Assembly: GCA_965203955.1 (NCBI GenBank)
Contig: OZ241923.1
Location: 1,357,395 to 1,421,394 of the forward strand
Direction: 5' to 3'
Source of the DNA: Dehalococcoidia bacterium
GTDB taxonomy: Bacteria; Chloroflexota; Dehalococcoidia; Lucifugimonadales; JADFKI01
Length of the DNA stretch: 64,000 bases
The position numbers and the translations under genes are program-made. Every line of letters starts with the position of its first letter. The first letter of the stretch is position 1. Shown here one piece after another: positions 7,026 to 46,670 of the stretch. The notes beneath the pieces were generated by a model, which saw nothing but the letters and a program-made list of their open reading frames with translations, was not told the DNA's origin and ran no database searches.

Positions 7026-7053
7026 GAGGTGGGAGTCGGTCAGTCTGTCAGCG

Positions 7054-7103
7054 CCCTTCGACAGGCCCATTCGGCAAGCTCAGGCCAGGCTCAGGGCGAA
7101 CGG
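7054..7103 (+). repeat. repeat family G (CCTTCGACAGGCC...CTCAGGACNGGCTCAGG)
   Basis: CCCTTCGACAGGCCCATTCGGCAAGCTCAGGCCAGGCTCAGGGCGAACGG. Confidence 0.6.
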
Positions 7104-7110
7104 GGCTGGG

Positions 7111-7140
7111 CTAACAGGATTTACGGGATGTGTATGATGG
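7111..7140 (+). repeat. repeat family C copy (short form)
   Basis: CTAACAGGATTTACGGGATGTGTATGATGG. Confidence 0.6.
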
Positions 7141-7146
7141 AAAGGG

Positions 7147-7222
7147 TTGACATATAAGAATATATGTACTACTTTTGTAGAATCAGGGGACGGACCTTTG
7201 CGGGTGCGTCTCTTTTGTTTTG
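7147..7222 (+). promoter_or_regulatory. orphan promoter-like element (TTGACA-17-TACTTT) followed by a hairpin plus T-tract
   Basis: TTGACA at 7147-7152 and TACTTT at 7170-7175. Hairpin GACGGACC/GGTGCGTC at 7189-7210, then TCTTTTGTTTTG. Lies 50 nt before the IS21 left end. Confidence 0.3.
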
Positions 7223-7378
7223 CAGGATTTTGGTGATGGGAGGAAGCAGTGGGAGATATTAGAAGCTCAATATTGTTAGCGCCAAGATTAAAATGGGCGA
7301 AATCGCCAAGTTGGAATTGACCCACCCCTAAACGGAGTGCATCTTTGTCGGAACAACCGACAGGAGGTGCCTGGCCTA

Positions 7379-8614
7379 ATGTTAGGGGGTAGAACAGTGA
7401 GAGAGCTTTACGAGTTGAAGGGCAAGGGGAGGTCGATACACGGGATAGCAGACGATCTCGGCATATCGAGGAACACGGTTCGCAAGTACGTGCGCTCACC
7501 GGGGGTTCCGAAGCCCACGGCCCGGTCGAAGCGTGGATCGAAGCTGGATGCGTACGCCGGCTACATAGACGTCAGGTTGGCGGAAGGGCTTGAGAACTGC
7601 GTGGTGTTGCTGCGTGAGATACAGGCGCTGGGCTACGACGGTGGCTACACGACACTGAAGAACTACGTGCATCCGAGGCGCAGGCCGAGACAGCCGAAGG
7701 CGACGGTACGGTTCGAGACAGCGCCCGGCGAGCAGGCGCAGGTGGACTGGGGAGTGGTCAGCTACGAGGGAGAGGACGGGCGCAAGCATCGTATGTGGGT
7801 GTTCGTGATGGTGCTGGGCTTCTCGCGTGCGATCTACGCGGAGTTCGTGCGTCGTGCGGATGTTCCGACGTTCATCCGGTGTCATCTGAACGCCTTCGAC
7901 TACTTCGGCGGAGAGCCGAGACGTTGCCTGTACGACAACGCCAAGGTGGTGGTGATTGAGCGTGACGAGGAGGGCGACCACGAGTGGAACAGTCGGATGC
8001 TGGACTTCGCGCGCAGGGTGGGCTTTGAGCTGAGGCTGTGCAAGCCGTACCGGGCGCAGACCAAGGGCAAGGTCGAGAGTGGAGTGAAGTACGTGAAGGG
8101 CAACTTCTGGCCGTCGGTGCGCTTTGGCGATGACGCCGACCTGAACCGGCAGGCACTGGCCTGGTGTGGCGAAATCGCCAACGAGCGAGTACACGGCACG
8201 ACCGGTCGAGTGCCGAAGGCGATGCTCGGCATCGAGCGCAGCAGTCTCGGTGCGCTGCCGGAGCGTTCAACCCTGGGCGTGTACCTACGCGAGGACCGCA
8301 AGGTGGGCAGGGACGGATACGTTAACTGGGACGGATCGCGCTACGGAGTGCCGTGGTCCTGGTCAGGGAGCACGGTGCAGGTGGGAGTGAGCGCCGGGAT
8401 GGTGGAGATATGGAGCGGTGATGAGAGGTTGGCGGTGCATCCGAGGGCACACAGGCGCGGACAGCGGCTGACGTTGCCCGGTCAGTGGGACGGACTGGTG
8501 AACGGGGACCAGAGCCCCAAGCGTGAGGCGCTGGCGGTGCAGGTGTCAGCTCAGCAAGTGGAGCGTCGATCGCTGGACATCTACCAGCTGCTAGCCGACG
8601 GAGGTGTGCGATGA
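7379..8614 (+). CDS. istA: IS21 family transposase IstA
   Basis: N-terminal HTH (GRSIHGIADDLGISRNTVRKYV) and a DDE region (QVDWG...DNAK...). The ORF track starts at 7337, and the start at 7379 has GGAGG upstream. Confidence 0.85.
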   Translation: MLGGRTVRELYELKGKGRSIHGIADDLGISRNTVRKYVRSPGVPKPTARSKRGSKLDAYAGYIDVRLAEGLENCVVLLREIQALGYDGGYTTLKNYVHPRRRPRQPKATVRFETAPGEQAQVDWGVVSYEGEDGRKHRMWVFVMVLGFSRAIYAEFVRRADVPTFIRCHLNAFDYFGGEPRRCLYDNAKVVVIERDEEGDHEWNSRMLDFARRVGFELRLCKPYRAQTKGKVESGVKYVKGNFWPSVRFGDDADLNRQALAWCGEIANERVHGTTGRVPKAMLGIERSSLGALPERSTLGVYLREDRKVGRDGYVNWDGSRYGVPWSWSGSTVQVGVSAGMVEIWSGDERLAVHPRAHRRGQRLTLPGQWDGLVNGDQSPKREALAVQVSAQQVERRSLDIYQLLADGGVR

Positions 8615-9411
8615 TAGCTCTGGAACAGGCACGCAGTCACCTGGAGACACTGGGGATGACACAGGCTATGGAGGTACTGGACAGCAGACTGGACGACGCG
8701 GCAAGGAAGCAACTGCCGTATCCTGAGATGCTCGCCGACCTGCTGGGAGTGGAGGTAACCGCTCGCAGGGAGCGCTACATGACCACCAGGACGCGCCTGG
8801 CACATCTGCCCTTCAGGCGCACTCTGGAGGAGTTCGACTTCGGCTTCCAGCCCTCGATAGACGAGAGGCAGGTGAAGGAGCTCGCCACACTCGCCTTCGT
8901 GGCGGAAGCATCGAACCTCCTGCTGCTGGGACCTCCCGGAGTGGGTAAGACACACCTTGCGGTGGCGCTTGCTCTGAAGTCGATAGAGAACGGGTACGGC
9001 GCTTACTTCGTCCGTGCATACGACCTGATGGAGGATCTGAGGAAGGCGAGAGCAGAGCACAGGCTGGACCGGCGTATGCGCGTGTACCTGTCGCCCAAGG
9101 TGCTGATAGTGGACGAGTTCGGCATCTGGCCATACGACAGGGAGTCGGCTACTGCGTTCTTCAGCCTGGTGTCTGCGAGATACGAGAAGGGCAGCATCAT
9201 ACTGACGTCGAACAAGGGCTTCGCAGACTGGGGAGAACTGTTGGGGGACACCGTGATAGCCACTGCGATCCTCGACAGGCTGCTGCACCACAGTCACGTC
9301 ATCAACATCCGCGGCGAGAGTTACAGGCTAAAGGACAAGCGCCAAGCCGGTCTGCTTACATCGCACCGGCTGATGACATCAACATCGGAGGAGACACCTG
9401 TAGAGGTGTAA
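8611..9411 (+). CDS. istB: IS21 helper ATPase IstB
   Basis: Walker A GPPGVGKTH and Walker B LIVDEFG. ATGA overlap with istA. Confidence 0.85.
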   Translation: MIALEQARSHLETLGMTQAMEVLDSRLDDAARKQLPYPEMLADLLGVEVTARRERYMTTRTRLAHLPFRRTLEEFDFGFQPSIDERQVKELATLAFVAEASNLLLLGPPGVGKTHLAVALALKSIENGYGAYFVRAYDLMEDLRKARAEHRLDRRMRVYLSPKVLIVDEFGIWPYDRESATAFFSLVSARYEKGSIILTSNKGFADWGELLGDTVIATAILDRLLHHSHVINIRGESYRLKDKRQAGLLTSHRLMTSTSEETPVEV

Positions 9412-13262: not shown

Positions 13263-13302
13263 TCACCCCCATCCTAACCTTCCCCCATCAAGTGGGAAGG
13301 GA
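13263..13302 (+). repeat. palindromic repeat family B (CACCCCCATCCTAACCTTCCCCCATCRAGGGGGAAGGG)
   Basis: TCACCCCCATCCTAACCTTCCCCCATCAAGTGGGAAGGGAC. Confidence 0.85.
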
Positions 13303-33588: not shown

Positions 33589-33605
33589 GGTGTACCTCCG
33601 GGGGT

Positions 33606-33630
33606 GGTCAGTATTTCAGTTTGTCAGTCG
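33606..33630 (-). repeat. TGA-rich spacer upstream of the SDR gene
   Basis: Minus strand reads CGACTGACAAACTGAAATACTGACC. Confidence 0.65.
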
Positions 33631-33867
33631 ATCGTACTCGTCGTGGAGTCCAATCCATACCCACACAAAGCCATCCTCGTCTTCAACCGCAAGTGCCCTG
33701 TATCCAAGTCCCACACGCGCCGACCAGTATTTCCCAACCTTCTTGAAATTTAGTGACGGATGTCTTGGATTAGACTTCAGTAACTCAAAGTTTCGTCTCG
33801 CCACTCGCTGAGTAGATTCAGGCAACTGGTCGAAATATCTCCAGAAGCGCGGCGCAGTTCGATGCAC
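33616..33867 (-). CDS. RelE/ParE superfamily toxin
   Basis: NPRHPSLNFKKVGKYWSARVGLGYRALAVEDEDGFVWVWIGLHDEYDRL. Confidence 0.6.
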   Translation of the reverse strand: MHRTAPRFWRYFDQLPESTQRVARRNFELLKSNPRHPSLNFKKVGKYWSARVGLGYRALAVEDEDGFVWVWIGLHDEYDRLTN

Positions 33868-34068
33868 TTACAGTTCTCTCAGTGTGCCATCCCTCTTTGC
33901 TGCGAGGGCTTCCGCTTCCAGAAAGTCGAGCTTGCCGCTCTCCGAATCTTCCTCAATCTGTGTGTCCCACCGTTCCCAGTCCAGTTCATTCATCCACTGC
34001 ATCAGATCACGGTAGTCATTTTCGTCAAGCGTCAGAATTGCCTGCTGTATTTCGGGGATGGTTGTCAT
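33868..34068 (-). CDS. putative cognate antitoxin (66 aa)
   Basis: Abuts the toxin start with no gap. Acidic helical protein. Confidence 0.45.
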   Translation of the reverse strand: MTTIPEIQQAILTLDENDYRDLMQWMNELDWERWDTQIEEDSESGKLDFLEAEALAAKRDGTLREL

Positions 34069-34087
34069 TCGTCATTTCTCCCTATGG

Positions 34088-34330
34088 CTATGCTTCAGAC
34101 ACGAACGTAAAGACATCCATCTGAATAGATGCTTTGGGAGTTGTCTGGCCGTTCACCATTACGCGGACGGTCTCAGCAGTCTTCGCACTGAAGGACTCTT
34201 CTCCGCAGCGAATGCAGACCGTCGCAGGAATATCTCTTACCAGGATGTACTTTCCGTCCGCTGAACGGAAGATTTCTTCTACATGTTCCGCTCTGCTTTC
34301 GTTCGAATGGCAGACAGCGCAGGAATACAT
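34088..34330 (-). CDS. YgiT-type zinc-finger (MqsA N-terminal-like) protein
   Basis: CAVCHS...VCIRCGEESF. Confidence 0.6.
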   Translation of the reverse strand: MYSCAVCHSNESRAEHVEEIFRSADGKYILVRDIPATVCIRCGEESFSAKTAETVRVMVNGQTTPKASIQMDVFTFVSEA

Positions 34331-34353
34331 GGTTTTATCTACCTCCGCTTAAA

Positions 34354-34447
34354 GTCATTCCGAGCAAAGCGAGGAATCTAAAATCTTTGCGTCCACGCAG
34401 GCACAGATTTTAGATTCTTCACTCCGCTGCGCTGCGTTCAGAATGAC
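34354..34447 (+). repeat. MITE-like inverted-repeat element family D (~95 bp)
   Basis: GTCATTCCGAGCAAAGCGAGGAATCTAAAATC...GATTTTAGATTCTTCACTCCGCTGCGCTGCGTTCAGAATGAC. Confidence 0.85.
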
Positions 34448-34531
34448 AATTGAAAGGACTATCGTTCATATTGACAGAGTAATTTGGTTTGTCAATTCAG
34501 CTATATCTCGTGTGTCAAACGCCGCTTGATT

Positions 34532-35685: not shown

Positions 35686-36450
35686 TCAGCTTTGGCGGCG
35701 CAGTCGCTCCAGTTCTGCCTGAAGTTCCTGATTGCGGGCTTCTGCGGCTGCGAGCGCTTCGTGTTCTTCTTGGTGGGTTTGCAAGTAGAGCTGTCGCACA
35801 GGGTCGTACCAGCGCAACTGTCCCTCCTCCTCTCCCTGCTCCCAGCGAAGTTCCAGCCCAAGAACATCGCTATGCCCACGGTAGTTCTCGTCGTCCACCT
35901 TTATTATTTCTATGGGCTGATATTCGCCGTCCACAAGGCGGTCGCCGGCTAGATGCGTCTGATGGCGGCCGCCGCCGGACGGGTCGAATCGCCAGTATTC
36001 TTGAACGCCGAAGTTGGCGTATCCCACGCGCTTGACCGTATCATCTCTGCGTCCCGTGCTTTTCGATGCTATCTCAAGTACGAACTCGGGCGGCTTGCCC
36101 TGATCGTCTATCGCATAACCGTTGCGCTCAATCGCTCTGGGCATCAGAGCGTTGAAGGCTACCATCAAATCGGGAACGAACCATCCGCCGCGCTGATAGC
36201 TGTTCCAGGCGAGATAGGCTTCGCTGATTACGACGACGGTATCGGGCGACAAGCCTAGCGATTCGACCAGGAACATTTCTATCGCGCTTGCGTAGCCCTG
36301 TTTGTGCAGGTGCTTGAAATTTTGCATATCGAACCTGGGAGGAGGGTCCGGGAATTGGTAGTGGTCGTCTCCCGGCTGCATGTTAGACAGGTGGAAGGAG
36401 GAGTGTTCGGGCAGCGCCGGCTTCAGCGCATCTTTCGTTTGTGTTGCCAT
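35686..36450 (-). CDS. Uma2 family endonuclease with C-terminal coiled coil
   Basis: VPDLMVAF..., PEFVLEIASKST...DTVKRVGYANFGVQEYWRFDP. Confidence 0.7.
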   Translation of the reverse strand: MATQTKDALKPALPEHSSFHLSNMQPGDDHYQFPDPPPRFDMQNFKHLHKQGYASAIEMFLVESLGLSPDTVVVISEAYLAWNSYQRGGWFVPDLMVAFNALMPRAIERNGYAIDDQGKPPEFVLEIASKSTGRRDDTVKRVGYANFGVQEYWRFDPSGGGRHQTHLAGDRLVDGEYQPIEIIKVDDENYRGHSDVLGLELRWEQGEEEGQLRWYDPVRQLYLQTHQEEHEALAAAEARNQELQAELERLRRQS

Positions 36451-37639: not shown

Positions 37640-37703
37640 CACCCCCATTCCTTCGGCAAACTCAGGACAGGCTCTAACCTTCCCCCTGGATGGGGGAAGG
37701 GAC
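37640..37703 (+). repeat. repeat family B copy carrying an internal family G insert
   Basis: CACCCCCATTCC-[TTCGGCAAACTCAGGACAGGCTC]-TAACCTTCCCCCTGGATGGGGGAAGGGAC. Confidence 0.7.
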
Positions 37704-37709
37704 AGGGTT

Positions 37710-40154
37710 TTAGCGGACGCGGTAGATGGCGGACTCGCCGTTGGGGTCGGTGAAGACGAGGTCGGCGATGGCGTCGAACTTGGGGATGCCTTCGATGCCG
37801 TATTTTTCGCGCTCGCGGCGACCGATGTACACGTAGTCGATGTCGTACTTGTAGAGGATGAGCTGCGCCTCGACGGGGTCTAGGGTAGTGTAGATGCGCT
37901 CAACCTCGGCTGCTCTGTCGTCGAAATACCGGTCGCGGAGGGCGCGCGAGACATCGGGCTTGTCGGCGTCGAACTGTTCCCAGCCGCCACGCCACTGCTT
38001 CTGGTGGCCGAGCCAGTTGACGATGGTGGGCAGGCCGGTGCTGCGGGAGACCATGCCCCAGTCGCTCCATTCGCCGACGGCCTCTACTATTGCAGCGTCG
38101 CGGGGCGCGTTACCCTTCAGCCACTCGATGGCGTCGTACTCGGCGGGGTTGTACTGCTGCACGAATGCCAAGCCGTCGAGGGTGCGCCCGGCCAGGGGCG
38201 TTTCGGGCTTGGTCTTGACGGCTGCGAGCGGGTAGTAGAGCGAGCAAAGCAGCAGCAGGACGAATGCCGCGGCCCAGACATACGAGATTGCGGTGCGCCA
38301 GCCATTCAGATTGCGGATTATGTTCAGCCAGTAGTACACGGCGAAGGCGGACGCGGCGGCGAGGAGAATCCATGCCTGGTAGTAGAGCTTGAAGACGGTG
38401 TTGCCGCGGTTGTTGAAGAAGTCGCGGATGAAGAGGAACTCCGCGCCGATGATGAGTCCGAGGCCAAGCACGGCGAGAAGGGTGGCGAACAGCCTGCCGC
38501 CCTCGTTATCGCGCCTTGCGAGGTAGAGCGCGTTGTAGATGCCGATTGCGGCGAGGCCAGTCAGTGGCAGGATGCCGATGAAGCGCGAGATAGTTTCTTC
38601 GATGCTGCCGTCGCTGGGCAGGTAGGCGAGCGCCCAGAGCAGCCAGGGGGCGAATGCGAGCGCGAGTGCGGTGAATGCCTGCGCTGCCCAGTCGCGCTGG
38701 ACGGTGGTCTGCCAGAATGTCGCGAGCAGGAAGGGCGTGACGGCGGTCAGGAACAATCCCCATACGATGAACATGTGGACAGCGCGGGTGTGCGTGATGA
38801 CGACGCCGATGCCGTTCACGCCGGCGTTGATGTCGAACAGGTAGGGGGAGTACATCAGGACGGCGAGTGCGATGACCGCAAGGCCGACGGGGAATAGGGC
38901 GAGCGCGAAGGACTGGCGGATGTCGCTGCCCTCGCGGTATGCCCTGAGCGCGAGAACGGCGATAAGCAGGGCGGCGAATGTTGGCATATCCCAGAGGTTG
39001 TTGAAGCCTAGTCCGCCGAGAATCACTGCCGCTGCGAGGACGATGGCGTAGGTGTAGGGGCTGCGGAAGTCGCGCCAGAAGCCGGCGGGCAGGCGGTAGA
39101 TGTTGAGCGCGACGCCGACGAAAAGCAGGACGAACGGGATGGACATGACGTGCGGGTGCATGTCGCCGAGCAGGAAGCTGAAGAAGGGGAACTCCTGGAT
39201 GGTGTTGTCGATGAAGTGGATGCCGTCGAAGGTGTTGATGACGCGGCTGGCGTGGAACCACCACCAGAAGTCGGGCGGCGTCCAGCTCTGCGGGGGCGTC
39301 TCGATGGGGCCGGGCAAGCCGTCGATGCGGATCCAGTCGTAGAAGCCTTGCGAACCCATGCCGTTGAGGCGCATGAACTCCAGGATGCCCTGGAGGTTGG
39401 CTGCGACAACAAGGAAGAGGGCGGCGGCGATGCCTGCCACGATCGCATATTTCTTGTGTGTGCCATTGAGGGACGCGGGTCCTATGGATGCTCCATCCGT
39501 ACTGTTGCCGTCTGTGGCAGGGGCGACGGTGCGTGCCTTGTTTAGGCGGACCATGTTGAAGACGATGCCGAAGATGCCGGTGGCTGCCATGGCGGGTATG
39601 AGCGCCATTGCGAGATTGTAGGCGATGTTGGAGGGGACGGCGGCGATCTGGCTGATTGCGCCCATCATCCAGTAGCCGAAGTAGTAGTAGCTGATGGACT
39701 CGCCGCGCAGCCAAGGGTCTTCGGGGTGGCCGACGTGCGAGTTGATGGAGGCGCTGAGGAGGGCGAGGTCCATCGGCTGCTCGGTGTGGTTGATGAACGG
39801 GTCGTAGGAGCGGAAGAGCGCCCAGCCGATGAAGAAGACGAGGAACACGGCCTCGGCGATGACGAGCGCGCGCCACTCGCGGGCGATGAAGTCGCGGAGG
39901 GCGTCGAGGTTGCGGTAGGCGATGTAGGCGGAGGCGGACGCCATGAGCAGCAGGAGCGCGATGGCGGTAGGCTGTGCGGTGGGGATGTGGGCGAGGCCGA
40001 ATACCCAGAAGAGGTATGAGACGAGGAGAATGCCAAGGGGTTTGCTGAGGGTGAAGCCCCTGTCAGCAAGTTTTGGTAGGAGGTAGAAGGCAAGCGGGAA
40101 AGCCGCCAGCCCAATGAGTTCTACGGTGATGAGCCATCGGAGGGCGTCGAGCAT
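37710..40154 (-). CDS. DUF2298 / Chlor_Arch_YYY family large polytopic membrane protein
   Basis: 814 aa, more than 15 TM segments, signature GESISYYYFGYWMMG. Confidence 0.75.
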   Translation of the reverse strand: MLDALRWLITVELIGLAAFPLAFYLLPKLADRGFTLSKPLGILLVSYLFWVFGLAHIPTAQPTAIALLLLMASASAYIAYRNLDALRDFIAREWRALVIAEAVFLVFFIGWALFRSYDPFINHTEQPMDLALLSASINSHVGHPEDPWLRGESISYYYFGYWMMGAISQIAAVPSNIAYNLAMALIPAMAATGIFGIVFNMVRLNKARTVAPATDGNSTDGASIGPASLNGTHKKYAIVAGIAAALFLVVAANLQGILEFMRLNGMGSQGFYDWIRIDGLPGPIETPPQSWTPPDFWWWFHASRVINTFDGIHFIDNTIQEFPFFSFLLGDMHPHVMSIPFVLLFVGVALNIYRLPAGFWRDFRSPYTYAIVLAAAVILGGLGFNNLWDMPTFAALLIAVLALRAYREGSDIRQSFALALFPVGLAVIALAVLMYSPYLFDINAGVNGIGVVITHTRAVHMFIVWGLFLTAVTPFLLATFWQTTVQRDWAAQAFTALALAFAPWLLWALAYLPSDGSIEETISRFIGILPLTGLAAIGIYNALYLARRDNEGGRLFATLLAVLGLGLIIGAEFLFIRDFFNNRGNTVFKLYYQAWILLAAASAFAVYYWLNIIRNLNGWRTAISYVWAAAFVLLLLCSLYYPLAAVKTKPETPLAGRTLDGLAFVQQYNPAEYDAIEWLKGNAPRDAAIVEAVGEWSDWGMVSRSTGLPTIVNWLGHQKQWRGGWEQFDADKPDVSRALRDRYFDDRAAEVERIYTTLDPVEAQLILYKYDIDYVYIGRREREKYGIEGIPKFDAIADLVFTDPNGESAIYRVR

Positions 40155-40198: not shown

Positions 40199-41128
40199 TT
40201 AGGTAGAGTTGGACGCGCCGACGGAGATGGTGAAGTCGGAAATTATGTGCGCTCTGGTGTCCAAGTCGTCCTCAGTACCGTCGGTTTCCCCGGAAGGCAA
40301 AACCTTAAACGAAGTGCGCGTAGCCTCTCTGACGGAATCGAACTGGAAAATCCTTACTCCCCTTCCTATGTCAATCACTCTGTTATCAAAACGGATATGC
40401 CTTTCATGAGCGTATCTTCTGAAATCGTCCTCGGGATGCAGCTTAACTTCTATGCTGTCAATTCCGTAGCCATCGAGTTGAACAGCGCAATCGCTCAAAT
40501 TGTCGATGATGGTCGTCACTTGTTCCTGAAGTTCGGTCTCAGGGGAAGAATAAATCGTTACAGCGCAGCCATTGGAATCGCCGTCGAGGAGATTGAGAAA
40601 TCGGACTAGCCCTTCAAAGGTATTACCTCGCACTGCCCACTCATCGACAATCACTACTTCGCGTGAATGCCTGGCTAACCGTTGAAACCGTTCTTGCCAA
40701 AGACTACTAACACTATCACCAACGGCAATGCGTTTCCTGCCAAGAGCTTCGGCTTGTATGAACTCTCTTGAATCGTTGACTTGCGTCAATCTGACGGCTT
40801 CCACACCGCGGAAATACTTGCCGTCACCATCGGGAATTTGCTCATTTCCAGCGCGAACTTGGGATATGAGGGCAACCCGAAAGTTGTCTCTACATTTCAA
40901 GAAACGAATAGGGTCGTTCTCTATCTCACGCCACGCGCGAGCCCATATCCTCTGTAAGCTTTGGTTCAGTTCCGGAAATTTGCGGCGGATGTTTGCAAAA
41001 CCGCCATCGTCCTGAGAGGGGTGCGCCAAGACACCGTACTGTTGCCACTTATTTCTCAGCGCATTGATATGGGAGCGGTTAGTATCGTTGTCAACTGCAT
41101 CAGGGTCAATGTAGAAATTCACCAGCAT
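40199..41128 (-). CDS. MIT_C / phospholipase-D-fold-like protein with a single HxRx4D motif (putative effector)
   Basis: 309 aa. The C-terminal ~150 aa read VVIVDEW...AVTIYSS...IEVKLHPEDDFRRYAHERHIRFDNRVIDIGRGVRIF (H241, R243, D248; nt 40385-40408). The N-terminal ~150 aa are unrecognised. Confidence 0.45.
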   Translation of the reverse strand: MLVNFYIDPDAVDNDTNRSHINALRNKWQQYGVLAHPSQDDGGFANIRRKFPELNQSLQRIWARAWREIENDPIRFLKCRDNFRVALISQVRAGNEQIPDGDGKYFRGVEAVRLTQVNDSREFIQAEALGRKRIAVGDSVSSLWQERFQRLARHSREVVIVDEWAVRGNTFEGLVRFLNLLDGDSNGCAVTIYSSPETELQEQVTTIIDNLSDCAVQLDGYGIDSIEVKLHPEDDFRRYAHERHIRFDNRVIDIGRGVRIFQFDSVREATRTSFKVLPSGETDGTEDDLDTRAHIISDFTISVGASNST

Positions 41129-41143
41129 ACTTAAAGACTTACC

Positions 41144-42835
41144 TTATTCGGCAAATAGCTCGTCCAGCACATCCACACCTTCATCTGAGCGGCCACGCTC
41201 ATCATCGGGTTGTAGTTCTTCCTTGAGCGCTTCGTCAAAGAAGCCGTCGGGCCAGGGGTCTTTGAAGTAGCTGTCTTCGCCGAGGCGGAGGACTTTGATT
41301 GCGCTGCCTTCAACACTCTTTTCGTTGGGGTCAACGTAGAGGACGGAGATGTCTTCAGGCTTGATTTTGCCTTCGCGGATGCGGCGTTGGAGGCGCAGTA
41401 TTAGCAGTTCGCTGTGGGTTTCTACAATCCACTGCTTGCGCTTGCCGGGTTCGTCGGCGATGGTGTCAATCATCAGGTCCGCGATGTTTGCCTGAAGGCG
41501 GGGGTGCAGGTGGATTTCGGGCTGCTCGACGCAGAGGATTGCGCCTTCCTGCGAGGCGATGCCTTCGATGATTACGGGCAGGATTTGGTTGATGCCGTAG
41601 CCGACGTCGGCGAGGGTTACTTGTGTATCGGTGCGTTTGTCGGTGAGGGCGATGGTGATATGTTCGCCGGCGAGTGACGGCTCGCCGAGTTTAATGACTT
41701 CGAGATTGTACGGGATTTCAAACTGGTCGAACCAGTCGTTTACACTTTCTTCAAGACGGATATTGCGGTGTAGCGCATTGGCTGAATGCTCGCCTTGTAC
41801 ACCAGTAGTGCCTGTTGATGAGTCGCTTTCGACCGAAAGGTCATAAAGCCTTTCCGGAGCGCTTCGCAACGGACCTAGGTAGTTGACTGAGTGCAGATGG
41901 CATTCGTAGTCAATTGGCGCGTTTTCACGGAATAATACCCCAGTCTGATTTTCAGACAGATTGAACCCTTCGATGCCAAGAGCCAACTTCAACGCTCGTT
42001 CCAATTCCAGCTCGGACGCCCATTCCGTATCTAAATCTTCTTTCCGTGTGTGTGCAACTCCTAATACTAACGTCCGCGCCCGTGCCAATGTTCGAGCACC
42101 TGCTCCTAACCATGTCGGAGTTCCTGCCCAGGTTTGCGCCCCCTCCAGTGTCTGCGCCAATTCCGCCGCTCCTACCAGCGACGACGCCCCATCCATTACG
42201 AATTCATCTACTCTTTCCGATAGTGCCTCTGCCAGTGGCAGTGCTTCTTCGCTCAGCTCGTCTTCATGCATAAGAAACCACATGGGTAGAAAAGAGGAAG
42301 TATCATAGTGACTATACGTGGTGTTATTCTCAACGGGTCCACCCAGCAGTTTGATATCCACAGCGTCCGAATCAAACCCTGCCGCAAATACGGACTTAGG
42401 GGCATCAGGTAATTTTATAACGGCATCAACCAAAGCTTCTTTATCTTCTGGCGTAACAATTTTATAGGTTACCTGGGATATATCTCCGTTACCCGAGCAG
42501 GTCAAGCCTATCGTAGTTTCGGAAACGTCAACCTCAGTATCAGGCTGCGTATCTTTATATTTGATTTCTATGCCAATACCCCGCTCGGCATCATGCTTAT
42601 GAAGCATAGCCTGAGGACTCCCCAAGTCCACGAATTCGCCTCTTGGCTCAAGCACTCTTACTGTAGAATAGCCATAGTCGTTCTTCAGCGACTGCTTCAG
42701 CAGCAACAGTGCCTGAATGATGGAACTCTTGCCGCCGGAGTTGGGGCCGTAGATTAGGGTGATTTTGGACAGGGGAGCTTCCTGCATTTCGTCGCCGAAT
42801 GCTTTGAAGTTGCGGAGTCCTATGCCTGTGAGCAT
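41144..42835 (-). CDS. AAA_15/AAA_21/DUF3696-type ABC ATPase (OLD/PtuA/AriA-like)
   Basis: 563 aa. Walker A GPNSGGKSS (K36), YLGPLRSAPERLY, VGYGINQILPVI, Walker B AILCVEQPEIHLHP, ETHSELLILRLQRRIREG. Confidence 0.7.
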   Translation of the reverse strand: MLTGIGLRNFKAFGDEMQEAPLSKITLIYGPNSGGKSSIIQALLLLKQSLKNDYGYSTVRVLEPRGEFVDLGSPQAMLHKHDAERGIGIEIKYKDTQPDTEVDVSETTIGLTCSGNGDISQVTYKIVTPEDKEALVDAVIKLPDAPKSVFAAGFDSDAVDIKLLGGPVENNTTYSHYDTSSFLPMWFLMHEDELSEEALPLAEALSERVDEFVMDGASSLVGAAELAQTLEGAQTWAGTPTWLGAGARTLARARTLVLGVAHTRKEDLDTEWASELELERALKLALGIEGFNLSENQTGVLFRENAPIDYECHLHSVNYLGPLRSAPERLYDLSVESDSSTGTTGVQGEHSANALHRNIRLEESVNDWFDQFEIPYNLEVIKLGEPSLAGEHITIALTDKRTDTQVTLADVGYGINQILPVIIEGIASQEGAILCVEQPEIHLHPRLQANIADLMIDTIADEPGKRKQWIVETHSELLILRLQRRIREGKIKPEDISVLYVDPNEKSVEGSAIKVLRLGEDSYFKDPWPDGFFDEALKEELQPDDERGRSDEGVDVLDELFAE

Positions 42836-42881
42836 GGTGTGGTGTCCTGTGGGGCTGGTAGTCTGTTGAAGTCAGCCATCC

Positions 42882-42909
42882 ATTTTAGCAAAGGCTGGGT
42901 GGGTTACAA
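42882..42909 (-). promoter_or_regulatory. sigma70-like promoter TTGTAA-16-TAAAAT for the ATPase/PLD-like operon
   Basis: Minus strand reads TTGTAACCCACCCAGCCTTTGCTAAAAT, ending about 46 nt upstream of the ATPase ATG. Confidence 0.45.
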
Positions 42910-42912
42910 GGG

Positions 42913-43077
42913 TTAATTCTGCGAAATGTCATCGAGTATCTCGTCTGAAGTTAACATTCGCCCCGCTTCCAACTCGGCCATCGCTTCGGCTACGGCTTGA
43001 CGCTCGTATTCGGTTTCGGGTTCGTCGTCTTCTGGCGCGCAGAGTAGTGCCGCCAGTACAGGGTCTGACTGACGCAT
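42913..43077 (-). CDS. possible small acidic protein (54 aa, antitoxin-like), below the ORF-track cutoff
   Basis: MRQSDPVLAALLCAPEDDEPETEYERQAVAEAMAELEAGRMLTSDEILDDISQN. No clear SD. Confidence 0.3.
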   Translation of the reverse strand: MRQSDPVLAALLCAPEDDEPETEYERQAVAEAMAELEAGRMLTSDEILDDISQN

Positions 43078-43080
43078 TTT

Positions 43081-43119
43081 CACCCCCATCCCAACCTTCC
43101 CCCATCAAGGGGGAAGGGG
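43081..43119 (+). repeat. repeat family B copy
   Basis: CACCCCCATCCCAACCTTCCCCCATCAAGGGGGAAGGGG. Confidence 0.85.
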
Positions 43120-43131
43120 TTTTTGTTCATT

Positions 43132-44574
43132 CTAGCCGGCGTTGACAAGGCTGTTCAGGGCTCTAATCTCCGGGGATTCCGGGTCGGCGGATTGCCAGTC
43201 TTGGGCGACCATTTTCAGGGTGTTGCGGGCTGTGTCGGTGTCGCCGGTGGATGCCTTGGTGCGGGCTAACCAGTAGCTGTCGCGGACGGAGGCGCGGCGG
43301 TTGAGGCGCACACGGAGGAGGTCTTCTGCCTTGTCGTATTGCTCGGCGCGTATGTATGACTCCAGCAGGGTGTCCTCAAAGACTTCGCGCTGGGCGTGGC
43401 TGCCGCCGATGCGGGCGAGCTGCGGGAATACGGGTTCGAGGTATCGCGCCGCGTCCTCGTAGCGGTCGTCGGCGAATGCGCTGATGCCCTTGACTAGCGG
43501 GAGCGTCACTTCCTTGGCGAGCGCGTCTCCCTGTCCGGCGAGGTCGCGCAGGCGGGCCTTGACTCCGCTCAGGCGCTCTTCGTCTCCGCTGGCGGCGAAT
43601 GCGAGGGCGGCGTGGGCGTCACGGAACGCGGGACCGGGCGTGGTCGCTGCGGGGGATGCCTGCTCTGCGATCTCCTGGGGCGGGAATGGCGTGTCGCAGC
43701 CGCCGTATATCTTGAGCCGCCACATGAGGGAGGAGCTGTCCATGAGCGAGTTCGCGCTCTTCTCCACTACGGTCGGGCGGATGACGTCTTCGTACATCTT
43801 GACGGCGTCGGAGTACTTGCCCTGCGCCAGCTCGAAGAGCGCCTGGTGCCAGGAGAGGTGGATGTTGAAGGGGGCGCGGCTGTCGTAGCCCTTGAGCCAG
43901 TTGCCGAGGAAGTCGCCGCCGTCCACGGCGTTGCCTTTCTCGAAATAGACGTGTGCGATGGAGTGGGATGCATGACCGCTGGTGGGACGACCGGCAAGGG
44001 AGCGCTCGGCGAGGGAAAGGGCTTTGTCGAGGCGGCCGGTCTCGTGGTGGGCGAAGGAGTACTGGCCGAGGAATGCCCAGTCGTCGCCGTAGCTGGGCTC
44101 GAGCTTCTGAAGCATGGCGTAAAGCTCGTCGGGGAAGTTCTGCACGCCCGCGCCGCTGCATCCGAGCAGGTAGAGGCGGTTGGCGACGCGCATCATCACG
44201 GCGTCGCGGGGGAACTCGTCGAGGTGCTCAAGGGTGACGGCGAGAGACTTGGGGCCGTGGCCGTTGATGAAGAGTGCAATGCCTTCGACGTGTCCCTGCT
44301 CGCGGCGGGTTGCGCTCCTGACGAGCTGCTGGGCCTTGGCGACGCTTGCCTTGGCTTCTGCGGGCGCGCCGCGGAGCATCTGCATCATGCTGAGGCCGGC
44401 GTAGGGGAGCGCGAAGTCTTCGTCCGCGTCTATCGCCTGCAGAAAGCGCTGCTCGGTGCCGTAGCCCTGTTCGAGCAGGATGTCAACGCCTTCGACGTAG
44501 TGCTCGGCGGCTTCCGCCGATGTCGTGGTCATGGCGAGCCCGTAGCGGTCTCGGATTGTGGCTGTTGCGGTCAT
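43132..44574 (-). CDS. tetratricopeptide repeat protein
   Basis: 480 aa, all-helical with TPR-like periodicity. SD is AAGGAGG. Confidence 0.6.
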   Translation of the reverse strand: MTATATIRDRYGLAMTTTSAEAAEHYVEGVDILLEQGYGTEQRFLQAIDADEDFALPYAGLSMMQMLRGAPAEAKASVAKAQQLVRSATRREQGHVEGIALFINGHGPKSLAVTLEHLDEFPRDAVMMRVANRLYLLGCSGAGVQNFPDELYAMLQKLEPSYGDDWAFLGQYSFAHHETGRLDKALSLAERSLAGRPTSGHASHSIAHVYFEKGNAVDGGDFLGNWLKGYDSRAPFNIHLSWHQALFELAQGKYSDAVKMYEDVIRPTVVEKSANSLMDSSSLMWRLKIYGGCDTPFPPQEIAEQASPAATTPGPAFRDAHAALAFAASGDEERLSGVKARLRDLAGQGDALAKEVTLPLVKGISAFADDRYEDAARYLEPVFPQLARIGGSHAQREVFEDTLLESYIRAEQYDKAEDLLRVRLNRRASVRDSYWLARTKASTGDTDTARNTLKMVAQDWQSADPESPEIRALNSLVNAG

Positions 44575-44635: not shown

Positions 44636-45022
44636 CTATGAGGTCGGTGTGCCGATGGCTGCCAGGGTTTGGCCGGTGTCCCGTCGCTTAGCGTCTTCCT
44701 CTGATTCAAGGGGCGGCTCCCAGTCGTCGGGGAGCGGCTCGTAGAGCGGCTCGATTGCGCTGACATCGACAGTGGCGCGGGCTACTTCGAGGTCGTACAT
44801 CTGCTGGAGGTTCATCCACATTTCGGCGTCCGTGCTGAACGCCTTCGCAATTCGCAGCGCGATGTCCGCTGTGATTGACGCACGGCGGTTCATGATTTGG
44901 CTGATGCGATAGGGTGTAACGCCGATTGCCTTAGCGAACTGGGACTGGGTGATGTCTAGGTCTTCAAGGAACTCTTCGAGATGATCGCTGGGATGGATAA
45001 ACTTAGCATCACACATCTGCAA
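44636..45022 (-). CDS. higA: HigA family antitoxin (XRE HTH)
   Basis: HPSDHLEEFLEDLDITQSQFAKAIGVTPYRISQIMNRRASITADIALRIAKAFSTDAEMWMNLQQMYDL. Confidence 0.8.
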   Translation of the reverse strand: MQMCDAKFIHPSDHLEEFLEDLDITQSQFAKAIGVTPYRISQIMNRRASITADIALRIAKAFSTDAEMWMNLQQMYDLEVARATVDVSAIEPLYEPLPDDWEPPLESEEDAKRRDTGQTLAAIGTPTS

Positions 45023-45028
45023 TTCTCC

Positions 45029-45307
45029 CTAGTGGTAATCTGTTACTTCAATTTCTGTGGCACCGGATTGTGTCCACCGAAAGCACACGCGCCATTGGTC
45101 GTTGATTCGTATGCTGTACTGGCCTCTACGATTTCCATGCAAGGCTTCAAGTCTGTTAGAGCGCGGGTTGGCGAGGGATGCTAAGCTTCGCACAGCAACT
45201 ACTCGCTGAACCTTTATACGCGCTCGTTCTTGAATGTCGGGCGGCAATCGGCGGCTACGCTCGCCGTTAAAAAGCCGTTCAGTGTCTCTGTTTCTGAATC
45301 TGCTCAC
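45029..45307 (-). CDS. higB: HigB-type killer toxin
   Basis: NRLEALHGNRRGQYSIRINDQWRVCFRWTQSGATEIEVTDYH. Confidence 0.8.
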   Translation of the reverse strand: MSRFRNRDTERLFNGERSRRLPPDIQERARIKVQRVVAVRSLASLANPRSNRLEALHGNRRGQYSIRINDQWRVCFRWTQSGATEIEVTDYH

Positions 45308-46632: not shown

Positions 46633-46670
46633 CACCCCCATCCTAACCTTCCCCCATCGAGGGGGAAGGG
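46633..46670 (+). repeat. repeat family B copy
   Basis: CACCCCCATCCTAACCTTCCCCCATCGAGGGGGAAGGG. Confidence 0.85.

Follow-up and report, generated by a model that had tools for sequence, protein, structure and literature searches.

Menshen (Millman et al. 2022; Li et al., NAR 2025, PMC12065111) is built from three proteins, NsnA-NsnB-NsnC. NsnA, the presumed DNA sensor, is a ParB-DUF262 + ParBDB protein, and NsnB is an ATP-binding cassette (ABC) ATPase with DUF3696 in which the Q-loop Gln is changed to Arg, the SGG signature to GxG and the Walker B residues DE to EN (PMC12065111). NsnC joins an N-terminal inactive-PIN (inPIN) adaptor to a polymorphic C-terminal effector, and AlphaFold3 models of an NsnB4-NsnC2 complex predict an NsnB tetramer whose DUF3696 tails serve as the docking site for the adaptor (PMC12065111). 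In one of the effector classes, PB-PLD1, the effector is a phospholipase D (PLD) domain that resembles MIT_C and has an HDR motif together with a conserved D/E; Li et al. argue that it is catalytic, and they also mention sporadic domain loss (PMC12065111). A second system, HEC-03, defends E. coli with two genes, encoding an ABC ATPase and a PIN protein, both of which are required (bioRxiv 10.1101/2024.01.29.577857). PDC-M55 is a related candidate system in PADLOC. Here we compare with these systems a two-gene islet found in a 64,000-nucleotide stretch of the genome of a Dehalococcoidia bacterium (assembly GCA_965203955.1, contig OZ241923.1, positions 1,357,395 to 1,421,394), which we refer to as the window. 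From comparisons of sequences and predicted structures, we consider it reasonably likely that this islet is a two-gene conflict cassette, most likely anti-phage, of the Menshen/HEC-03/PDC-M55 superfamily, composed of an NsnB-like ATPase and an NsnC-like effector and operating without NsnA.

Both genes of the islet are on the minus strand, the first open reading frame (ORF; 41144-42835) encoding an ATPase of 563 aa and the second (40199-41128) a partner protein of 309 aa. The guanine-cytosine (GC) content of the cassette is 51.1%, compared with 65.8% in the upstream TPR gene and 63.1% in the downstream DUF2298 gene. An initial annotation of the stretch, made from its letters without database searches, had already described two co-directional minus-strand ORFs 15 nt apart in an AT-richer islet between DUF2298 and TPR genes. 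We found the coordinates as described and the base composition to differ in the sense proposed (51.1% GC versus 63-66% in the flanks). The ATPase gene and the junction to the partner gene have the following features:

41144..42835, minus strand: NsnB-like ABC ATPase with a DUF3696 C-terminal tail, identified from the ORF, Pfam and PADLOC
42722..42748, minus strand: Walker A motif GPNSGGKSS (K36); GPNSxGKSS (as GPNSGGKSS or GPNSSGKSS) in 16/16 aligned ATPases
41936..42565, minus strand: hypervariable insert, residues ~91-300, a putative trigger-sensing region
41861..41881, minus strand: Q-loop substitute YLGPLRS (Arg for Gln), also found in the HEC-03 and PDC-M55 ATPases
41576..41605, minus strand: signature-motif substitute VGYGINQILP (GxG for SGG)
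41501..41539, minus strand: non-canonical Walker B ILCVEQPEIHLHP (E-Q for D-E); VEQPE invariant in 16/16 aligned ATPases
41219..41365, minus strand: DUF3696 tail (PF12476), residues 491-539, predicted docking site for the N-terminal domain of the partner
41129-41143, minus strand: spacer between the ATPase and partner ORFs, 15 nt, GGTAAGTCTTTAAGT, whose AAGG overlaps the ATPase stop codon; a tight operon junction

At other loci the junction between the two genes is either a gap of 3-17 nt or an overlap of 7-50 nt.

The ATPase was assigned to its class by Pfam matches to AAA_15 (7e-25), AAA_21 (5e-20) and DUF3696 (24 bits, cutoff 22). Weak matches to SMC_N and RecF were restricted to the Walker A region, and a PDB sequence search with the ATPase returned a weak OLD match (6p74) alone. 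Among the PADLOC models, NsnB scored best (3e-56), followed by HEC-03B (3e-50), PDC-M55A (4e-48), AriA (4e-28) and GajA (~1e-10). The NsnB match covers mainly residues 303-538 of the ATPase, and the NsnB profile comprises 345 positions compared with the 563 aa of the protein. Two plasmid cassettes served as positive controls. An Aeromonas plasmid cassette was recovered as HEC-03 (ATPase 1e-133, PIN partner 3e-23) and a Bacillus plasmid cassette as PDC-M55 (A 8e-80, B 2.5e-26), and the ATPases of both carry the same non-canonical motifs as the window ATPase. Since the latter scores between 1e-48 and 1e-56 on all three models, it is a sister branch built on the same chassis, and it belongs to none of the three systems. 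Its similarity, as judged from sequence profiles, supports a wider NsnB/HEC-03B/PDC-M55A clade and not orthology to NsnB.

The motifs LGPLR, VGYG and VEQPE are kept in the ATPases of every phylum examined, the EQPE Walker B was additionally seen in PDC-M55 and Rhodococcus ATPases, and an ETHSE motif is present in the 563-aa protein. Across the loci the ATPases range from 467 to 704 aa in length. The motifs quoted in the initial annotation, namely GPNSGGKSS with K36, YLGPLRS, VGYGINQILP, ILCVEQPEIHLHP and ETHSE, are all there, and the AAA_15/AAA_21/DUF3696 class that it had recognized passes in Pfam.

The partner gene (40199-41128) can be divided as follows:

40694..41128, minus strand: N-terminal alpha/beta domain, residues 1-145, a putative adaptor equivalent to NsnC-N
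40202..40693, minus strand: C-terminal MIT_C-type PLD-fold domain, residues 146-309, a putative effector
40637..40657, minus strand: VVIVDEW strand end with D162, which is Asp in 133/134 family representatives and Glu in 1
40385..40408, minus strand: HERHIRFD, an HxRx4D (HKD-like) motif, residues 241-248 (H241, R243, D248), which occurs once
40355..40369, minus strand: IGRGV loop (G255-R256-G257), at the position that the GSxN loop has in HKD enzymes

The Pfam family MIT_C (PF16565) is matched by residues 149-263 of the partner at 26.5 bits (cutoff 25), over profile positions 9-116 of 142. It is the sole Pfam match and is reached (E <= 1e-3) by 26/134 family representatives. A PDB sequence search with the 309-aa protein gave no match. 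We then turned to structure prediction, and an AlphaFold2 model built with 38 homologues reached a predicted local distance difference test score (pLDDT) of 93.6 and a predicted template modelling score (pTM) of 0.89. The top five Foldseek matches of this model in the PDB are all the PLD-like C-terminal domain of MITD1 (2ymb, 4a5z), with an E value of 1.5e-6, a template modelling (TM) score of 0.63 normalised to the target and a root-mean-square deviation of 3.8 Å. Ranked after them are bacterial PLDs, among them that of Streptomyces, and two restriction nucleases of the PLD family, NgoAVII R-protein and SauUSI; the probabilities of all these matches, MITD1 included, are 0.98-1.0. A search of a viral structure library returned nothing beyond generic PLD folds. 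The likeness of the C-terminal half to MIT_C, which the initial annotation had pointed out, is borne out by the Pfam score and by the MITD1 matches alike. The single HxRx4D motif that it had placed at 40385-40408 is HERHIRFD, and no Toprim, DUF4435 or HNH domain was found in either protein by Pfam or PADLOC, in agreement with its statement that the partner is none of these.

The N-terminal domain, modeled alone, reached a pLDDT of 88.1 and has the order beta-alpha-beta-alpha-alpha-beta-beta-alpha-beta-beta-alpha-alpha. It is more conserved among alleles (0.58-0.73) than the C-terminal half, and F5, W28, G32 and E110 are conserved at >=90% family-wide. The DUF3696 tail of the ATPase, with an identity of 0.88-0.94 among syntenic alleles, is predicted to be its docking site after the AlphaFold3 models of NsnB4-NsnC2 (PMC12065111).

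The putative active-site pocket of the partner was compared across 134 representatives, which average ~25% identity to the window partner. R243 is retained in 134 of them, D162 and G257 in 133 each, H241 in 128 and D248 in 94. The motif can be written as HxRx4Dx6GxG; it is HKD-like, with an invariant Arg in place of Lys and without S/T-x-N, and the partner does not carry the canonical catalytic motif HxKx4Dx6G(S/T)xN. H241 is not invariant, one subfamily having Arg at this position. Arg241 is always accompanied by His256, which turns GRG into GHG (10/10 in A1, 4/4 in A5; window positions 40406-40408 and 40361-40363), and no sequence with H241 carries His at 256. The partner of L017, one of the Dehalococcoidia loci described below, has the same arrangement (RDR...LHG). 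In HKD enzymes, the loop equivalent to GxG lines the active site. We read the swap between positions 241 and 256 as the relocation of a required His within the pocket, which favours catalysis over mere binding, with the reservation that the swapped sequences may be one clade. Because R243 is invariant, H241 and D162 are at least 95% conserved and every H241R carries R256H, a functional pocket is implied.

An ATPase acting as sensor or motor together with a PLD-fold effector, as the initial annotation had put it, remains the best reading of the gene pair. The cassette resembles Menshen in its ABC ATPase, which ends in a DUF3696 tail and departs from the usual motifs as NsnB does (Walker B is EQ here and EN in NsnB), and in its tightly coupled downstream effector of ~310-360 aa, which consists of an alpha/beta N-terminal domain and an MIT_C-like PLD. 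Compared with the published description of PB-PLD1, the window partner has D162 and H241-E242-R243 in common with it. Strong effector polymorphism and frequent association with restriction-modification (R-M) genes are further points of likeness. In contrast to Menshen, the NsnA gene is absent in 30/30 loci here and the ATPase contains a long hypervariable insert (563 aa versus the 345-position NsnB profile). The PADLOC NsnC model matches 7/134 partner relatives as well as the partner at L007. The BrxL model matches 3/134, a likeness that concerns BrxL C-termini.

With HEC-03, the cassette shares the organization in two genes, a DUF3696-type ATPase followed by a small coupled partner, and the lack of a DUF262 sensor. 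It also shares LGPLR, DVGxG and ETHSE, and the EQPE Walker B occurs in an HEC-03-type Rhodococcus ATPase. However, the HEC-03 partner is a VapC-like PIN protein of 160-180 aa, whereas the partner here combines an adaptor with a PLD domain. In PDC-M55 the ATPase likewise comes first on the same chassis and is followed by an overlapping partner of ~350 aa, but the window ATPase scores 4e-48 compared with 8e-80 for a true member. Neither the HEC-03A nor the PDC-M55B model found a match among the window partner, eight divergent partners and the 134 representatives, and we rejected the PDC-M55B partner of the Bacillus plasmid as a member of the same family (hhalign probability 0.2%). PDC-M55 cassettes were found beside abortive infection (Abi) genes on Bacillus plasmids.

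The partner has the same PLD-like fold as MITD1 (2YMB, 4A5Z), and the region of its H-D/E-R motif fits the MIT_C profile. Unlike MITD1, it has no MIT domain and no ESCRT context, its N-terminal domain is another one, and it is encoded together with an ABC ATPase. Gabija, PARIS, Septu and OLD are comparable in that an OLD-type ABC ATPase controls a bound or fused nuclease, and the AriA and GajA matches of the window ATPase are significant, if weaker. They differ from the cassette, which has no Toprim, DUF4435 or HNH domain and instead has the DUF3696 tail and the E-Q Walker B.

In two plasmid cassettes with an ATPase and a PIN-like partner, which come from two phyla, L029 4410-7038 (Aeromonas plasmid, HEC-03 by PADLOC) and L031 4401-6963 (Rhodococcus plasmid), a co-oriented gene for an 'RNA ligase family protein' lies directly downstream. 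HEC-03 as published, with its two genes, does not include this gene, which could be either a third component or a counter-measure.

To determine how widely the gene pair occurs, we scanned one genome per species for relatives of the 309-aa partner. The scan yielded 16 loci, 10 in Dehalococcoidia/SAR202, 2 in Latescibacterota and 4 in Pseudomonas, and in 16/16 of them an ATPase homologue lies immediately upstream on the same strand. The context of representatives with ~20-40% identity again showed a DUF3696-type ATPase directly upstream. Altogether, the ATPase is directly upstream of the partner in 30/30 loci with enough sequence, which come from Dehalococcoidia/SAR202, Latescibacterota, Pseudomonas and metagenomes and represent at least three phyla. 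The two genes are thus conserved neighbours. An exhaustive hidden Markov model (HMM) search of 1.84 billion representatives found 794 partner clusters at E <= 1e-3, of which 185 reach E <= 1e-30; almost all have ~320 aa and match over their full length. Word-index homology searches found 42-55 close relatives, to which the diverse profile A5 added none. All named members of the partner family are annotated as 'hypothetical protein'.

No DUF262 gene (PF03235) was detected in any Pfam-annotated context or among the upstream ORFs of the 30 loci. The genes immediately upstream of the ATPase encode TPR, HsdM, S8 peptidase, PIN toxin and SNF2 helicase proteins, among others. A DGQQR-type motif, the hallmark of DUF262, is absent from the six-frame translations of 28 loci and of the 64-kb window. 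The published Menshen survey was seeded on DUF262 and could therefore not collect loci without NsnA. Outside the Dehalococcoidia site, the neighbours include type I R-M (L007, L019), Mrr with HicAB (L024), a PIN toxin (L011), HATPase_c_3 (L018) and resolvases with a transposase (L032).

Two loci show irregular copies. At L010 (Dehalococcoidia; 7050-8873), ~830 nt inserted into the partner gene separate residues 1-41 (7050-7172) from residues 27-303 (8001-8873), with ~15 codons duplicated; they probably stem from a mobile element or from an event that turned the gene into a pseudogene. At L027 (5510-7023), the ATPase is split into ORFs of 143 aa and 319 aa, while it is intact with 504 aa in the near-identical contig L028 (5509-7023). 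The split is either a recent inactivation or an assembly error.

In Dehalococcoidia, the cassette occupies the same site in the window and in 12 related loci, with the gene order FtsY - (HigBA) - TPR - [ATPase - partner] - DUF2298. The dip in GC content recurs in 12/12 syntenic loci of other genomes (0.43-0.51 versus 0.56-0.66). Relative to the window, the flanking proteins are 89-96% (FtsY), 80-97% (TPR) and 77-89% (DUF2298) identical. Within the cassette, identity to the window is 54-96% for ATPase residues 1-90 and 44-90% for residues 301-563, and the insert in between (91-300) could not be aligned by tblastn in 10/12 syntenic loci. The N-terminal domain of the partner is 32-67% identical to that of the window and undetectable in 5 loci, the PLD domain is 30-62% identical, and the most divergent syntenic alleles of the whole partner have about 22-40% identity. 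In seven syntenic alleles compared in 30-aa bins, mean pairwise identity is 75-99% for ATPase residues 1-60 and 391-540, 53-68% for residues 301-390 and 13-28% for residues 91-300. L017 was reached through its TPR gene and not through the cassette. Its ATPase has 622 aa and a coiled-coil insert, and its 364-aa partner could be recognized only when profiles were compared (hhalign 97.2%, E 3.6e-11, over the full length).

Comparison of single alleles revealed a mosaic structure. Between the window and L006, nucleotide identity is 81-99% in the ATPase gene, ~65% at its 3' end and in the N-terminal domain of the partner, and 37-51% in the PLD half. Between the window and L002, it falls to 36-57% in the insert and is 90% in the 3' ATPase core. 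The positions of these breakpoints imply that insert and effector are exchanged independently. In the pair of window and L006, a near-identical ATPase is combined with an N-terminal domain that is 53% identical, and because of this pair any mirror-tree signal between DUF3696 tail and N-terminal domain would be confounded by recombination. Hypervariability, mosaicism, deviant GC content and defense neighbours are the signatures that would be expected of an immune locus under diversifying selection.

From the homology, architecture, strict linkage, motif conservation, hypervariability and mosaicism established by the analysis, we infer each step of the following mechanism. The ATPase would oligomerise and hold the effector through contacts between DUF3696 and the N-terminal domain, as in the NsnB4-NsnC2 models and as in Septu and PARIS. 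The hypervariable insert, replacing the separate sensor NsnA, may recognize a phage-derived trigger. The E-Q Walker B suggests that the ATPase hydrolyses ATP slowly and serves as a switch operated by ATP binding instead of a motor. The trigger would release or reposition the effector, so that two PLD domains with one motif each could come together to form a composite active site, in the manner of Nuc, BfiI and Zucchini. The active enzyme would cut a phosphodiester substrate, most likely nucleic acid, and phage replication would stop or the infected cell would die. In Dehalococcoidia, recombination at the fixed chromosomal site would swap sensor insert and effector independently. The two-gene defense by HEC-03 is a precedent for autonomy without NsnA, and the cassette is probably an autonomous defense module.

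Several observations weigh against this interpretation. Neither the PADLOC NsnC model nor any other PADLOC model matches the window partner, and its N-terminal domain gave a best Foldseek E value of 0.16, with no PIN among the top 50 PDB matches. Among solved structures the partner comes nearest to MITD1, which binds membranes and is not known to catalyse any reaction; Arg replaces the HKD Lys, and only 70% of the representatives keep D248. Searches of viral contigs and of plasmids yielded no relatives. The cassette is present in every syntenic Dehalococcoidia locus, without an empty site, and only L017 was reached by an unbiased route. Finally, some copies are decaying, with an interrupted partner in L010 and a split ATPase in L027.

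Some of these points would fit a PLD-like domain that is not an enzyme and serves instead as a MITD1-like module for binding lipid, membrane or another ligand, acting on the membrane or by sequestration. Of the alternatives, this one survives best, and we nevertheless regard it as unlikely. In structure the domain matches MITD1 best, in Pfam it matches MIT_C alone, the HKD Lys is replaced by Arg, D248 is kept in 94/134 representatives and H241 is lost in one subfamily. MITD1 itself reportedly binds membranes without any reported catalysis, a description credited to Hadders et al. in 2012. Yet R243 is invariant, and H241 and D162 are conserved at >=95%, over 134 representatives that average ~25% identity, and the loss of H241 is always paired with His256 in the GxG loop, which suggests that a His is needed in the pocket. 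In addition, the next-best structural matches are PLD-family nucleases, and Li et al. argue for catalysis (PMC12065111).

It is improbable, in our estimation, that the loci are decayed Menshen systems, that is, non-functional remnants that lost NsnA. The best PADLOC match of the ATPase is indeed NsnB, single copies are decaying (L010 interrupted, L027 split), and the effector class has been described only within three-gene Menshen, for which sporadic domain loss is mentioned (PMC12065111). Against this, the ORFs are intact and the catalytic motifs invariant across 30 loci from at least three phyla, none with DUF262, and the partner family comprises 794 representative clusters, nearly all full length. 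The ATPase is approximately equidistant from NsnB, HEC-03B and PDC-M55A, with true HEC-03 and PDC-M55 members scoring 1e-80 to 1e-133, which argues for a sister branch, and HEC-03 works as two genes (bioRxiv 10.1101/2024.01.29.577857). We give as little credence to a non-immune role, be it a toxin-antitoxin-like addiction module or a fast-evolving lineage-specific housekeeping pair for DNA repair or partition with an SMC/RecF-like head: the fixed position in 13/13 syntenic Dehalococcoidia loci with no empty site seen, the absence from viral contigs and plasmids, the weak SMC_N and RecF matches and the toxin-antitoxin genes nearby would be compatible with it, but housekeeping genes lack a 13-28% identical segment beside 77-97% identical neighbours, mosaic exchange and a persistently deviant GC content, the related ATPase cassettes in PADLOC are all defense systems or candidates, and R-M and Mrr genes are neighbours in unrelated genomes.

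The surroundings of the cassette contain further features:

43132-44574: TPR gene, flank on the upstream side of the cassette
37710-40154: DUF2298 gene, flank on the downstream side, assigned through Pfam PF10060 on orthologues
42882..42909, minus strand: promoter-like TTGTAA-16-(TG)CTAAAAT, 46 nt 5' of the ATPase start, with a TG-extended -10, found as a consensus match
13278-13300, 37678-37700, 43095-43117 and 46647-46669: repetitive extragenic palindrome (REP)-like hairpin CCTTCCCCC-N5-GGGGGAAGG, four copies in the window versus 0 expected by chance
42913-43089, minus strand: small acidic ORF, 58 aa from the first ATG, a 5'-truncated copy of an 81-aa antitoxin-like gene

Three elements at the upstream edge had been noted in the initial annotation, and each of them exists, although the details need amending. 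The proposed promoter, TTGTAA-16-TAAAAT, is present, but five such sites occur in the region where shuffled sequences have 2.4 +/- 1.6; it is not significant and provides no evidence on its own, and we rejected it as proof of an independent transcription unit. The repeat at 43095-43117 is one of four copies of the REP-like hairpin in the window and is not specific to the islet. All three copies checked lie just beyond gene ends, a position that suggests a genome-wide intergenic repeat family. A role of the upstream copy as islet boundary or mobile-element end was rejected, as the same hairpin stands at other intergenic sites. The acidic ORF, given as 54 aa, has 58 aa from its first ATG. The antitoxin-like gene is intact, with 81 aa and an N-terminus like KEDLHKLIEELPEDEIQ, in L023 (4782-5027), L027 (4892-5137) and L028, and in the window the hairpin sits directly upstream of the ORF, where the missing N-terminal part would be. 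The gene or a remnant of it was found in 5/13 syntenic loci, and we rejected the ORF as a conserved third component of the cassette.

A second AT-richer islet (44636-45307, minus strand; GC 0.52-0.55) between the FtsY and TPR genes encodes a HigB toxin (PF05015, 2e-14) and a HigA-like HTH_3 antitoxin. It is present at the same place in L003, L008 and L017 and absent in L001, L002 and L006, which makes it a further accessory insert that varies at this locus. A gene for a Uma2-family putative restriction endonuclease (35686-36450, minus strand; PF05685, 7e-15) lies between the Ldh_2 and NHL-repeat genes; an equivalent of it is present in L023 and absent in L025, making this a third variable islet within 10 kb. 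The interval 33600-34530 between the SDR and Ldh_2 genes has ~47% GC and no ORF of at least 90 aa; the equivalent interval in L027 carries several small unannotated genes. Within the DUF2298 gene, positions 39450-39770 of the window have 48% nucleotide identity to both L006 and L002, compared with 80-90% in the rest of the gene. This segment appears to encode a low-complexity loop (NKARTVAPATDGNSTDGAS...), which points to a variable surface loop of the membrane protein.

The initial annotation had considered the pairing undescribed. This is no longer tenable for the partnership of ATPase and effector, as both components and their association are already described within Menshen (PMC12065111), and two-gene systems with a DUF3696 ATPase are known from HEC-03, which is validated, and from the candidate PDC-M55. 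It does hold for the combination without NsnA and for a partner outside the PADLOC models. What is new is a cassette of an ATPase and an MIT_C/PLD protein that lacks NsnA and falls outside the PADLOC partner models, the sizeable and strictly linked family to which it belongs, and the allele-swapping hotspot in Dehalococcoidia. More tentatively, and with rather less confidence than in its assignment to the superfamily, we propose that the cassette represents an autonomous, uncatalogued two-gene family in which the ATPase insert took over sensing and made NsnA dispensable, and in which the MIT_C-type PLD is a true enzyme, switched on by ATPase-controlled dimerisation.

The cassette, and with it an effector family of ~800 clusters (50% identity) from several phyla, would escape both the PADLOC models and the Menshen survey, which is anchored on DUF262. 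It also ties the enigmatic eukaryotic MIT_C of MITD1 to a bacterial setting in which catalysis can be tested. If our proposal is correct, the cassette would offer the first tractable means of finding out what the MIT_C domain, common to human MITD1 and BrxL, does biochemically. The H241R/R256H pair would then be a natural active-site rearrangement. Likewise, the TPR/DUF2298 site would exemplify an immune hotspot in which alleles are swapped at one locus, here in an uncultivated marine lineage, and its at least 11 highly divergent mosaic alleles provide a natural experiment that could map the parts of ATPase and effector that determine specificity. Finally, the cassette suggests that Menshen-type immunity has its autonomous core in NsnB and NsnC, with NsnA as an add-on sensor; this would alter the view of how these systems evolve and signal.

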